From an uncultured Gemmatimonadales bacterium (lineage in GTDB: Bacteria > Gemmatimonadota > Gemmatimonadetes > Longimicrobiales > RSA9), in contig CAWCUS010000001.1 in NCBI GenBank assembly GCA_963798845.1, positions 631,850 to 695,849 on the forward strand: DNA of 64,000 bases. Reading direction: 5' to 3'. The notes under the pieces were generated by a model. The model ran no database searches, was not told the DNA's origin, and saw only the letters and a program-made list of their open reading frames with translations. The stretch's first letter is position 1. Each line of letters begins with the position of its first letter. The translations under genes were made by a program, and so were the position numbers. Positions 2,933 to 25,950 of this stretch are shown piece by piece.

Positions 2933-5900
2933 CTAGCCTGCCACCACCCGCACCGCCCGCAGTGCGGCGCCGCCCCCCACGACCTCTCCGCTCCCCTGGA
3001 CGTAGGCGCCGTCAGGACTGAGCTCCCACACCGCCTCATCGTGAAGGACGCCATCCAGAATGGCGCGCAGCCGCTCGCACAGCTCCGCTCTCCGTACCGG
3101 CACGCCCACCTCGACGCGACGCGACAGGTTCCGCGGCCGCCAGTCGGCGGAGCCGATGAAGTATTCGGGCTCCCCCCCATTGGAGAACTCGAAAATGCGA
3201 GCGTGCTGGAGGAGCCGTCCCAGCAGGCTGACGATCCGGATGTTCTCCGAAAGCCCCGGCACACCGGGGCGCAGCGCGCAGATTTCGCGCACCGCGAGCT
3301 CCACCTGCACGCCGGCCTGGGAGGCCTCGTACAGCTTCGAGATCATGCGACGGTCGGCAAGGCCGTTCAGCTGGCCGCGCAGGCCGGCCGGACGCCCCGC
3401 CTTCGCGTGCTCGATCTCGCGGTCGATGAGCTGGAGGAACCGCTGGCGCATGTTGAAGGGCGAGACGAGCAGCTGGTCGAAGTCGCCCGTGGCGGAATAG
3501 CCGGTGAGGATGTTGAAGACCCCCTGCAGCTCCTCGCCGATGCCCTGGTCCGCCGTGAGGAGCGCCACGTCGGTGTACGTCCTCGCCGTGGCCGCGTTCA
3601 GGTTCCCCGTGCCGATGTAGCTGTAGCGGACCAGCCGCTCCCCTTCCCTGCGCACGACCAGCCCGGCCTTCGCGTGCACCTTGTACTTGAGCGGGCTGAA
3701 GACCACGTGGATCCCCGCCGCCGACAGCGACTTGGCCCACGCGATGTTCTGCTGCTCGTCGAAGCTGGCCTTGATCTCGATCAGGGCCACGGCGTCCTTG
3801 CCCAGCTCCCTCGCCCTGGACAGCGACTGCACGATCTCGGACGATGTGTCGGTGCGGTAGAGCGTAACCTTGAGCGCGACCACGTCCGGATCCTCCGCGG
3901 CCTCCCGGATGAAGCGCTCGGCGCTCGAGTTGAAGTCGTCGTGCGGGAAGTACACCAGCCGATCCGCCTCCGCGAGCAGGTCGAACACCGGCCGCCCCGG
4001 GTCGAGCGGCTTCGACCGCTTCAAGGGCGGGAAGCGGGCCTCGCCCTCCACGTCGAGGTCGGCGATCTCCTCCAGCGCCGCCAGGTCGATGAGCCCGTCC
4101 ACGACGTACACATCCTGAGGACCGAGCCACCACGATTCGGCGGGTGACTCGTAGCGCAGCTCGTTCACGATCATCTGGCGGAGTGGACGGGGCATGCGCG
4201 CGTCCACTTCCAGGCGCACGGGGGAGCGGAACGGGCGACGCGCCACGTCCTCCTCCACCGCCTGCAGCACGTCGCCTACCAGGGTCTCTTCGAGCTGGGT
4301 GCGGGCGCTGCGCGTCACGCGGAAGAGGTGTGCGCTCTGGATGGTGAGCCCCGAGTAGAGCTCAGGCAGGCGCGCCACCAGCAGATCCTCCAGCGGCACC
4401 AGGCGGCGTCCGTCTTCGAGCGGGAGGAAACGGGGAAGCTCTCCCGGTAGCTCGACGGCCGTGAAGTGGGCCCGGTCGGACGCAGGCAGCCGCACCACCG
4501 CGCCCACGGCCGGGCGCAGGTTCCGCATGTGCGGGAACGGGTGGCTGGCATCGGCGGCCATGGGCGTGAGCACGACCTCGGCGTCGGCGGCGTACCGCTC
4601 CAGCAGGTAGGCGCGCTCGCCGTCGTCCAGCTCGCGCCAGCGCAGGATCCGCACGCCGCGCTCCGCAAGCGCAGGAAGTAGCCTTCGGCGCAGCAGCCGC
4701 TGCGCGCGGGCGGCCACCTGTCGCGACCGGACCCCGATCAGGTCGAGCTGCTCCTGCGCCGTGAGCCCGTCCATGGTCCGGCGCTGGCCTGGCGCGGCCG
4801 CCTCTTCCTTGAACCCGGCCACCCGGGTCATGAAGAAGTCGTCCTGACGCGTGCCGAACATGGACAGGAAGCGGACCCTCTCCATGAGCGGGGGCTCCTC
4901 CGACTCGGCGAACACCAGGATCCGCTCGTCGAATCCGATCCGGCTCAGCTCCGCGTTGAGAAGGTGCTCCGGCGGAACGTCCTTCCCCGGCGCATACTCG
5001 GGCAAAGGCATCGGCGGCAGCGCCAGCTCGAGCGCTTCCGGCCCCGCGTCGGCCTCTCCGAGCTCCGCCGCCTCTTCGGCGCTCCCCAGGTCCGAGCGCG
5101 CGGCCACCTCGAACGCCGCCAGGGTGCGCGGCTCCCGCAGCGCGCCGCCACCCACCGCTTCCAGCGCTTCGGCAAGCGGCACCCAGACCATCCGCTCGTC
5201 CGTGTCGTCGGGCTGAACCTCGTCCGTGAGCCACACCTCGAGCGCCGGGCGCCCGGGGCCCCCGGGATTCGTGCCGAGCAGCCGCACGCGCGCCCCCGTC
5301 CGCCCCAGCTCCCGCGACACCAGCCGGCGCGCCCCCGCCTCGCCGCTCCCATCGCCGCACGGCACCCGCAGCCCATCCGGCACCCGGCGCAGCGCGACGC
5401 GCCCCATCGCGTACGCGATCACGGCCAGCTCTCTCGCGGCACGCACCTCCCGCTCCAGCGCCTCCACCTCCGCGTCCTCGAGCAGCTCCCGCGCCCTCGT
5501 GGCCGGGTCAGACAGGGTGATGCGGACGCCGGGCTCCTTCTCCAGCGACGCGACCAGCCCGTCCACCTCCGCGTCCTCTCCCGTTGTGAGGGCGAGCTCC
5601 CACAGCGTTCCCGCGAGCTCGTTCCGGCGGACCGTGAGCGTATCGTACGAGAGCACGAGCTCCCGCCCCTCTTCCCCTTCTTCGCCGGCGGTCAGCTCGA
5701 CGTGGCGGAGGCGGCAGAGCGTCTCCACCTCGAACGCCGGCTCGAGCCGCGCCGGGTCAATGAGGCCGCGCAGGAGCTCGGCGGCTGCCGAGTCGCCGTG
5801 GAAGACGCTCTCCGGCTCGCCCGGGCCGACTTCGGACTCCTCCACCCGCGCCGGACCCTCCCCCTCGCCGGTGCTCCGGATGTCGACGCGCAGCGCGCGC

Positions 5901-24538: not shown

Positions 24539-24649
24539 GCGGCTCCCGGATGTACTTCCAAAGCGCGCTGACACGACGCGGTCAGGAAGCGCTCCGAGGG
24601 CGCAAGGTCGGAATGCGCGCGGTCGCCGGCAAGCGGTTACCTTTTGAGC

Positions 24650-25258
24650 ATGCTTCCCGCCCGAGCCCCCCTGACCACACCGCCGGCGCCGTCGGCCGCG
24701 CGCCTGACGTCGGGGCTCGCGCTCGCCGCCCTTCTGCTATCGGCCGCGCCTGGCTCCCTCGCTGCCCAGGATGAGGGGCTCGCTCCAGGCGACGTCCCCG
24801 GCGCGGCCGTGGTCCAGACCCTGGATGGCGACGCCGTGCCACTGTCCTCTCTCACGGACGGGCGTCCCGCGCTCGTGGAGTTCTGGGCGACGTGGTGCCC
24901 CATCTGTCGCGCGCTCCAGCCGCGCATGGACGCCGCGCACGCCAGGTTCGGCGACCGTGTCGCCTTCGTGGTGGTGGCCGTCGGCGTCGCCCAGACGCGC
25001 GACCAGGTCCGCGCGTTCGTCCAGCGGCGACCGCTGCCCGGCACCGTGGTGTGGGATGGCGCCGGCGAGGCAGTCCGGGCGTTCGAGGCGCCCGGGACCG
25101 GCTACATCGCCATCCTCGCGCTGGACGGCCGCGTCGCCTACGCCGGCACCGGCGCGGACCAGGACCTGAGCGCGGCCCTGGATGCTGCGCTGGCCGAGCG
25201 TGCTCCCGGGTCGGCACCGTCGGCGGGCGGAGCCGTGTCCGCCGCAACCTGCCGCTGA
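24650..25258 (+). CDS. Secreted TlpA/ResA-like thiol:disulfide oxidoreductase (thioredoxin fold)
   Basis: Signal-like N-terminus and the active site (FWATWCPICR). The tool start (TTG 24644) lies 2 codons upstream. Confidence 0.85.
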   Translation: MLPARAPLTTPPAPSAARLTSGLALAALLLSAAPGSLAAQDEGLAPGDVPGAAVVQTLDGDAVPLSSLTDGRPALVEFWATWCPICRALQPRMDAAHARFGDRVAFVVVAVGVAQTRDQVRAFVQRRPLPGTVVWDGAGEAVRAFEAPGTGYIAILALDGRVAYAGTGADQDLSAALDAALAERAPGSAPSAGGAVSAATCR

Positions 25259-25262
25259 CCGC

Positions 25263-25856
25263 CTACTGCGGCGGCGCGGCGATCCGGTCGACCGCCTCTC
25301 CCAGCGCGGTGTACGCCGCCGGATCGATCTCCCGGAACGGCGCCGACACGTAGGCGATCTTCCCGTCCGGACCGATCACGAACACGTCGCGTGCGCTTAC
25401 GTGTGTCCCGGGGCGGTCGAAGACGGCCCCGAACTCGGCCGCGGCGACGAGGCCCGTGTCGCTGGCCATGAGGAACGGGAACTCGTCGTCCCGGGCCCAT
25501 GCCGCCAGCGTGTCGACGGGGTCGACGCTGATGGCCATGAGGACCACGTTCCGGCCACCGTTGAAGAGCTGCGCGTACTGATCACGGTACGCGTGCATTT
25601 GCACAGTTCAGCCCTTGCTCCTGGCCCTGAAGAAGAAGGCCAGGACCACCGTCTTGCCGGCGTAGTCGCTCAGCGACACGGGCTCGGCCAGGACGCCATA
25701 GCGGCTCGCGCCGGGAAGGCTGAAGTCGGGGGCGGCGTCGCCTGCTTCGAGCGGCGTGGTGCCCTGGGCGGCGGCCGGGGTCGGTGTCGTGGCCGCGGTG
25801 ATGCCCAGCGCCGCTGCGAAGGCGAAACCGAAGGCGCTGGCGTGGGGTCGTCGCAT
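25263..25856 (-). CDS. Secreted AhpC/TSA (BCP-like) peroxiredoxin with an in-frame TGA (25608..25610) at the peroxidatic Cys position; candidate selenoprotein
   Basis: Two tool ORFs (25608..26087 and 25263..25604) are in the same frame, separated only by TGA. The joined sequence reads ..GKTVVLAFFFRARSKG-[TGA]-TVQMHAYRDQYAQLF..VVLMAISVD.., so the stop replaces the Cys of the Prx G-C-T motif. ATG at 25856 is preceded by AGGAG, followed by a signal peptide. Confidence 0.6.
25572..25593 (-). other. Candidate bacterial SECIS-like hairpin downstream of the in-frame UGA
   Basis: On the mRNA strand: CGCGUAC-CGUGAUCA-GUACGCG, a perfect 7-bp stem with an 8-nt loop that has G at loop position 2. The stem begins 15 nt after the UGA. 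Confidence 0.4.
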
Positions 25857-25950
25857 GAGGTGTCTCCTGTGGCGGTACGGAGACAACGTACGGGGCACGC
25901 CGCGGCTGCGCACGACGGCGGCGACCGACGGCGGCGACCGACGCCTGCCG

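Follow-up and report, generated by a model that had tools for sequence, protein, structure and literature searches.

Does an in-frame TGA codon in a peroxiredoxin (Prx) gene end the protein, or does it encode selenocysteine (Sec)? This question is raised by a locus at positions 25263..25856 (minus strand) of a 64,000-nt stretch of DNA from an uncultured Gemmatimonadales bacterium (GenBank assembly GCA_963798845.1, contig CAWCUS010000001.1, positions 631,850 to 695,849), which was analyzed as a whole and is called the window in the following. A preliminary description, made from the letters of this DNA alone, had proposed a Sec-containing peroxiredoxin and had named a pseudogene as the alternative. 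Based on the comparative data reported here, which support the first proposal and reject the second, we consider it highly probable that the locus is a genuine Sec-encoding gene for an exported peroxiredoxin of the BCP/PrxQ type. The basis comprises UGA-specific conservation, selection on both halves of the gene, constraint and covariation in a hairpin, the pairing of Cys and Sec forms, and synteny. The comparative criteria applied are those used for calling selenoproteins in metagenomes, where the decoding machinery likewise cannot be checked (PMC13188914).

An in-frame TGA at the catalytic position of a peroxiredoxin gene

We read the frame on the minus strand from the ATG at 25856..25854 to the TAG at 25265..25263 and found the TGA at 25610..25608 to be its sole internal stop; the two open reading frames (ORFs) described earlier do lie in one frame and are split by this single codon. 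The elements of the gene, including a candidate selenocysteine insertion sequence (SECIS) and with residue positions counted from the TGA, are:

25263..25856, minus strand: gene for a 1-Sec peroxiredoxin of the BCP/PrxQ type, predicted to be exported (candidate selenoprotein), 197 codons including the UGA, from translation and Pfam
25864..25867, minus strand: Shine-Dalgarno-like GGAG, 7 nt 5' of the ATG, by direct reading
25767..25856, minus strand: predicted export signal peptide, MRRPHASAFGFAFAAALGITAATTPTPAAA followed by QG, with a basic N-terminus, a hydrophobic core and an AxA site
25629..25631, minus strand: Phe codon TTC at -7, the canonical Pro position of PxxxTxxC, aligned to the Pro of the structures 2ywn and 2cx3
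25617..25619, minus strand: Ser codon at -3, the Thr/Ser of the TxxU motif (Ser here, Thr in 93% of the Sec forms)
25608..25610, minus strand: UGA, the putative Sec codon at the peroxidatic position, aligned to the catalytic Cys codon (TGC) of close homologues
25594..25607, minus strand: spacer of 14 nt from the UGA to the SECIS stem (gapless alignment A3, columns 22-35)
25572..25593, minus strand: candidate SECIS hairpin with 5' arm 25593..25587, loop CGUGAUCA at 25586..25579 and 3' arm 25578..25572
25389..25391, minus strand: codon of the conserved catalytic Arg, R156, an invariant column in alignment A4, aligned to the Arg of 2ywn and 2cx3

The residues around the codon read A-F-F-F-R-A-R-S-K-G-[TGA]-T-V-Q-M-H-A-Y-R-D-Q-Y-A. 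With a placeholder at the TGA, the joined product matched the Pfam family AhpC-TSA (PF00578) over residues 39-169 with E = 9.7e-27 and 93.8 bits against a cutoff of 26; this match spans the TGA, and a further match to Redoxin was obtained with 3.2e-18. Together with the signal-like N-terminus, the domain match bears out the earlier view of one joined AhpC/TSA peroxiredoxin with a Shine-Dalgarno sequence, a start at the ATG at 25856 and a signal peptide. The cleavage site of the latter was placed by hydropathy and AxA heuristics. Heuristic inspection of the N-termini of relatives revealed a hydrophobic 12-mer in 84 of 95 and a K/R within the first eight residues in 79 of 95.

The nearest solved structures in a phmmer search against the PDB were two archaeal BCP/PrxQ proteins, 2ywn and 2cx3, and AhpE of M. 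tuberculosis, a 1-Cys enzyme (E = 3.8e-14 to 1e-6). In the alignments the TGA falls on the catalytic Cys of both archaeal proteins and of >100 Cys homologues, which confirms the position assigned to it before, and both Ser -3 and R156 align with their counterparts (Thr/Ser and the catalytic Arg) in the solved BCP/PrxQ structures. All NCBIfam equivalogs scored below cutoff (BCP with 61 bits against 140; PrxU, NF040737, with 45.1 against 270). The protein is a distinct BCP/PrxQ-like subfamily and not PrxU. It contains no Cys residue and carries a His at +5, where BCPs often have the resolving Cys, and among the full-length Cys homologues 104 of 108 contain the catalytic Cys only. We predict an enzyme of the 1-Sec/1-Cys type that depends on an external reductant; its peroxidase activity, the insertion of Sec and the export are what we infer from the sequence.

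Conservation of the TGA codon and selection on both halves of the gene

For comparison, one genome per bacterial species was scanned with the joined protein, and a metagenome scan was seeded with Cys forms. A protein search returned >100 full-length Cys homologues as well as two 111-residue fragments that start just 3' of the TGA. One of these (P0003) is identical to the window, while the other (P0021) is 87% identical and stems from a different contig of 892 kb (locus L001). This locus has the same TGA, and ~45 nt 3' of it are 100% identical to the window compared to a DNA identity of 87% overall. We observed a TGA at exactly this codon in ~58 species genomes of Gemmatimonadota, the phylum to which all close relatives in the species-genome scan belong (Gemmatimonadales, Longimicrobiales, Candidatus Kutchimonas and others). 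The metagenome scan yielded 75 TGA loci and 4 TGC loci. Among the complete relatives, CP070812.1 (L006) and CP070716.1 (L027) have the gene in its TGA form. Across the ~58 species genomes and 75 metagenome contigs, all 131 related loci that could be compared over the shared motif have TGA as their catalytic codon, and TAA or TAG never occurs. In the Cys forms the codon is TGC (L057, L059, L060, L088, L090, L100, L103 and L160-L167). The TGA form is the dominant one in Gemmatimonadota. Since the locus is the only convincing read-through candidate of the window and the same TGA and hairpin are found in >130 independent loci, the arrangement is more than chance.

The first alternative to be weighed against these data is a recent pseudogene, in which a TGC/TGT to TGA point mutation inactivated an ordinary Cys peroxiredoxin. 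TGA is one base from TGC, Cys forms of the family exist, and the public annotation is a 111-aa fragment, all of which fits a pseudogene. However, the TGA is common to all 131 loci across orders of Gemmatimonadota. These loci have diverged to 50-69% protein identity, which excludes that they are assembly artefacts of one sequence. The window and L001 are separated by a synonymous divergence (dS) of 0.6-0.8, and neither further stops nor frameshifts were found between them. For this pair the ratio of nonsynonymous to synonymous divergence (dN/dS, Nei-Gojobori) is 0.17 upstream (38 codons) and 0.10 downstream (codons +13..+36) of the TGA, and the median over ~1,300 pairs is 0.19 upstream and 0.31 downstream. 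Such ratios indicate that both halves are maintained as protein by purifying selection. In addition, there is a constraint at the RNA level that is restricted to TGA forms (see next section). The probability that we leave to a pseudogene is negligible.

A hairpin under TGA-specific constraint

The hairpin, CGCGUAC/CGUGAUCA/GUACGCG, consists of a 7-bp stem and an 8-nt loop, and its stem begins at the 15th nt after the UGA. Folded alone it reaches a minimum free energy (MFE) of -9.4 kcal/mol (z = -3.0). Codons +6..+11 are fixed as GCG TAC CGT GAT CAG TAC in 121-124 of the 124 unique TGA genes, so that their synonymous entropy is ~0. Two of the fixed codons, CGT and GAT, are not preferred ones in GC-rich genomes such as these. 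At other places in the TGA genes, Ala and Arg codons show a synonymous entropy of 1.0-1.9 bits. Nine unique Cys-form genes, whose peptide is almost identical here, served as a control and vary at the same sites (TAC 5, TAT 4; CGC 5, CGG 3, CGT 1; GAC 6, GAT 3).

Applying RNAalifold to the gapless alignment of 113 unique sequences, we obtained exactly the 7-bp helix, with 99.7% of the cells paired. The closing pair of this helix links the wobble positions of a His/Asn codon and of an Ala codon that lie 21 nt apart. Of the 113 sequences, 60 have U-A here, 49 C-G and 2 G-C, the remaining 2 are unpaired, and one-sided changes are absent. A covariation as high was reached in 0 of 500 shuffles, slid controls were 0.4-57% paired, and a tree of the flanking codons required at least 23 state changes of the closing pair. 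We regard the TGA-specific freezing of wobble positions and the covariation as the decisive signals, and as strong evidence for a constraint on the hairpin at the RNA level. Orthologues with Cys codons and no conserved hairpin had been named beforehand as the outcome speaking against a selenoprotein; the alignment gave the opposite, namely TGA together with an invariant hairpin and a covarying closing pair.

The published consensus model of the bacterial SECIS (bSECISearch) has a loop of 3-9 nt, a stem of 4-16 bp, a G in the first two loop positions, a UGA-to-loop distance of 16-37 nt and an MFE of at most -7.5 kcal/mol (PMC13188914, Fig. 2). The hairpin lies within every one of these limits (loop 8, stem 7, G at loop position 2 followed by U, UGA-to-loop 21 nt, -9.4 kcal/mol), and its compatibility with a bacterial SECIS, as suggested in the preliminary description, was confirmed. 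The loop CGUGAUCA is, however, unlike that of the E. coli fdhF SECIS, which is a GGUC loop with a bulged U. The invariance of CGUGAUCA across the peroxiredoxin family points to a SelB recognition element specific to this lineage; no second gene with the loop came up when one was scanned for.

Besides the hairpin, the Sec forms of these genomes, whose GC content is ~70%, have non-preferred codons on either side of the UGA: Arg(-4) is CGA in 53%, Arg(-2) is CGT in 66% and Gln(+3) is CAA in 82% (25611..25622 and 25599..25601 in the window; columns 7-18 and 28-30 of alignment A3). This hints at a constraint on the UGA context beyond the hairpin. We looked for conserved pairing of these codons and found none.

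Genes next to the peroxiredoxin gene

One neighbour is of particular relevance:

24644..25258, plus strand: TlpA/ResA-like thioredoxin-fold protein with a WCPIC motif, predicted to be exported; convergent to the peroxiredoxin gene with a 4-nt gap, start codon uncertain

Both the motif and the convergent position 4 nt away were recovered as originally described. The protein matched Pfam Redoxin (5.8e-13) and Thioredoxin (1.1e-8) and gave weak NCBIfam matches to TlpA/ResA/StoA. Of the 102 TGA loci with enough flank, 83 have a TlpA-like gene as their convergent neighbour, and W-C-x-x-C is present in nearly all of these neighbours. Moreover, a CcdA/DsbD_TM gene lies directly beside the TlpA-like gene in most loci (~97), Sec and Cys alike (e.g. 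L160:2616-3332). Judging from this synteny, the TlpA-like WCPIC protein is the probable reductant of the Sec-Prx. The other neighbours, an M20 peptidase, a creatininase, a UPF0029/DUF1949 protein and an aldo-keto reductase, are seemingly unrelated.

Observations against Sec decoding and alternative readings of the UGA

Several observations weigh against the decoding of the UGA as Sec. In a context of 66 nt the fold of the hairpin is not exceptional (z = -0.8). Furthermore, the stem is partly dictated by the peptide A-Y...Q-Y-A, which is intrinsically palindromic at the DNA level, and for this reason the Cys forms keep 4-7 of the 7 pairs. The hairpin described earlier thus stands in its form, with a 7-bp stem, an 8-nt loop and a G at loop position 2, but taken by itself it is weaker evidence than had been assumed, and we rejected the hairpin alone as proof of a SECIS. 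No Rfam match was found at the gathering and E-value thresholds, although none was expected as a general bacterial SECIS model is absent from Rfam. ARAGORN found no tRNA-Sec in the 64-kb window and 1.14 Mb of related loci, and selA, selB and selD had no tblastn match in the window and 1.46 Mb of related flanking DNA when E. coli SelA, SelB and SelD (sequences validated by NCBIfam) were used as seeds. The sel genes are simply unlinked to the Prx locus, and their absence from its flanks says nothing on the whole genome. The searchable literature, including the supplements of a survey of 5,200 genomes, contained no mention of Sec use or selenoproteins in Gemmatimonadota or Gemmatimonas. Finally, neither the window nor L001 has CcdA next to the pair, and the gene is absent from the 64-kb window as a whole and from L001; the sub-lineage of these two has split the transporter from the Prx-TlpA pair.

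If the UGA were a true stop, the locus would give only an 82-aa N-terminal fragment, or else two polypeptides that form a split, non-catalytic thioredoxin fold. In the latter version translation would restart at a conserved ATG. In either version the hairpin would have to serve for coupling or pausing, or else be a by-product of the AY..QYA peptide. A conserved ATG, the Met of T-x-Q-M, is indeed found four codons past the TGA, and the partial encoding of the stem by the peptide extends to the Cys forms. A plain stop should, however, drift among TGA, TAA and TAG, yet only TGA is seen in the 131 loci. It sits exactly on the catalytic residue, which is Cys in homologues that are up to ~90% identical, and the freezing of the wobble positions in the loop and of the covarying closing pair is confined to the TGA forms. 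Shine-Dalgarno-like conservation before the internal ATG was not noted, and the product would be devoid of a redox residue, yet the catalytic Arg and the Thr/Ser are kept. We consider a true stop, in both versions taken together, very improbable.

Alternatively, the UGA could be decoded, but not as Sec, either by near-cognate or suppressor read-through (Trp, Cys, Gly, Arg) or because UGA is reassigned. Public called proteins with W, L, V or R at the catalytic position seem to fit this explanation. Within the 64-kb window, however, ordinary genes often end in TGA and we found no other convincing in-frame TGA read-through candidate, from which we conclude that the genetic code is standard and UGA is not reassigned. 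The W case (L168) is a TGA translated by a gene caller with the wrong table, and the L case (L169) is a TTA on an 864-bp contig of 1.6x coverage with an intact hairpin; W and L as real residues other than Cys or Sec were rejected on these grounds. Catalysis would be lost with Trp, Gly or Arg as the peroxidatic residue, and SelB-dependent decoding predicts just such a position-specific hairpin at SECIS distance. There is little probability left for a non-Sec residue at this site.

Public calls mishandle the family in two ways, either as 111-aa C-terminal fragments (P0003 and P0021; NCBI/ENA) or with the UGA as Trp (JGI). The latter concerns the full-length calls P0018 (L168:548-1120) and P0068, for which the metagenomic gene caller picked the code-4 preset. 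Two singleton database proteins of the F/Y type, P0105 and P0112, have Val and Arg at the catalytic position; the Arg codons CGA and AGA are one base from TGA.

A further explanation accepts a true selenoprotein family but assumes that the host genome recently lost Sec decoding, which would make this copy an intact-looking, untranslatable relic. Loss of Sec decoding is described as frequent in bacterial evolution (PMC1794560). There is nevertheless no damage at all to the gene, its SECIS or the downstream frame, and the downstream dN/dS compared to L001 is 0.10. Only a slight chance is assigned to such a relic, and decoding as Sec remains our preferred reading.

Two further signals in the window were noted during these searches. 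At ~38797 (plus strand) a long ORF ends with KLTFRF-TGA, and the frame continues with an N-terminus resembling that of a lipoprotein, MNTTIRSGFAVALLAAASLAATACDNF; this looks like an ordinary pair of SusC/TonB-receptor and SusD-like genes with no read-through. At 3966..4057 (minus strand) ARAGORN made its sole tRNA call in the window, a 92-nt 'tRNA-Phe (gaa)' inside coding-like sequence rich in G and C at third codon positions, for which Rfam gave no tRNA match, and which is probably a false positive.

Replacement of the conserved Pro in the Sec forms

One of the published "absolutely conserved Prx residues" is the Pro of PxxxTxxC (PMC3322552, Fig. 4 legend), and the Sec-Prx motif is written PxxxTxxU and called highly conserved (PMC13188914). 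In the window protein this canonical Pro is not present and a Phe occupies -7. We counted the residue at -7 against the catalytic residue in a curated set of 213 unique sequences, outside of which lay one Sec+Pro paralogue (L057):

Sec with Phe at -7: 78 unique sequences
Sec with Tyr at -7: 31 unique sequences
Cys with Pro at -7: 101 unique sequences
Cys with Phe/Tyr at -7: 3 unique sequences

Phe/Tyr is thus found at -7 in all Sec forms (109/109), and Pro in 101 of the 104 Cys forms. With both columns masked, a neighbour-joining tree with Fitch reconstruction gave ~11 switches of each character, although this tree is fragile. A Sec+Phe gene (L082:3001-3507) and a Cys+Pro gene (L162:2501-3106, P0013) are ~90% identical elsewhere, so that Sec/Cys and Phe/Pro changed together recently; the pair looks like a very recent Sec/Cys switch in either direction. 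In the Cys+Pro gene of this pair the stem is still 7/7 paired and the loop is one wobble base off (CGC vs CGT).

That the use of Sec is functionally coupled to a remodelling of the active site, with Phe/Tyr replacing Pro whenever Sec replaces Cys and with repeated joint switches, is a possibility that we would place slightly short of an even chance. An aromatic residue at -7 that accommodates or tunes the selenolate is speculation.

Two further arrangements were observed. One metagenome-assembled genome of Gemmatimonadaceae carries tandem paralogues (L057:2074 and L057:2631), a Cys copy (TGC, FFP) and a TGA copy that keeps the Pro (AFFPKSRTKG-TGA-TVQM). No other Sec+Pro combination was seen, and this copy may be an evolutionary intermediate. 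A Myxococcota contig (L074:4320) encodes a canonical BCP, FYPKDSTPG-TGA-TTEAC, whose peroxidatic codon is TGA and whose resolving Cys is kept; this gene is a different, conventional Sec-BCP.

Proposed mechanism and significance

Taken together, our findings are best described by the following scheme. During translation the UGA at 25610..25608 would be decoded as Sec, for which the hairpin 14 nt downstream would act as the SECIS and recruit SelB with Sec-tRNA(Sec), as in the standard bacterial mechanism. In the mature periplasmic enzyme Sec would be the sole redox-active residue, and the protein would work as a 1-Sec peroxidase: the selenolate, helped by the Ser/Thr at -3 and by Arg156, would attack the peroxide and become a selenenic acid. 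An external dithiol would then regenerate the Sec, the likeliest donor being the convergently encoded TlpA-like WCPIC thioredoxin. As far as synteny can tell, electrons may pass from cytoplasmic thioredoxin to CcdA, to the TlpA-like protein, to the Sec-Prx and finally to the peroxide in the periplasm.

Gemmatimonadota very probably decode Sec and use it outside the cytoplasm. If this is true, a major soil phylum consists of habitual users of an exported selenoenzyme, and soil selenium availability would be linked to the envelope peroxide defence of a dominant group of soil bacteria. An abundant antioxidant enzyme of soil bacteria is systematically missed in public records because its gene is cut into fragments or its UGA is translated as Trp. 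The occurrence of Sec with Phe/Tyr and of Cys with Pro at a supposedly invariant residue may also be seen as a natural experiment on Sec versus Cys catalysis. Should it reflect true epistasis and not shared ancestry, the enzyme pair (U with F/Y and C with P) would be a tractable one for studying the role of the Pro and the choice of selenium over sulphur.

Comparison with known systems

Sec-Prx proteins are catalogued as 'Peroxiredoxin (Prx), PF00578, TxxU' (PMC13188914). Compared to this family and its prototype, PrxU of Eubacterium acidaminophilum, the window protein has the same AhpC/TSA fold with Sec for the peroxidatic Cys in T/S-x-x-U. Both have an in-frame UGA followed by a SECIS hairpin within the coding region, and Cys homologues are widespread. 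The window protein differs in being BCP/PrxQ-like, in having Phe/Tyr for the Pro of PxxxTxxU, in its predicted export signal and in the lack of a second Cys. With the BCP/PrxQ proteins (E. coli Bcp, 2ywn and 2cx3, AhpE) it shares the domain length as well as the aligned Thr/Ser, catalytic Cys position and Arg, whereas it has Sec and not Cys, Phe and not Pro at -7, and no resolving Cys.

The closest parallel at the level of the pathway is the envelope route ScsB to TlpA to PprX of Caulobacter crescentus, which was demonstrated experimentally (PMC3322552). As in Caulobacter, a PrxQ-type peroxiredoxin with a signal sequence, predicted in the present case, would be combined with an exported TlpA-like thioredoxin that receives its electrons from a DsbD-family transporter, and in relatives of this locus the three genes are adjacent. 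In contrast to the window protein, PprX contains Cys, keeps the Pro of PxxxTxxC and has a resolving Cys. The transporter is of the short CcdA (DsbD_TM) type and not ScsB, it is not adjacent in the window, and the partnership here is read from synteny. Both the Sec-Prx (TxxU) family and the type of TlpA-dependent Prx pathway in the envelope are therefore already known, and the locus is not a new kind of system. What is new is the lineage, the scale, the systematic mis-annotation and the [F/Y]xxx[T/S]xxU variant, which is tightly coupled to Sec.

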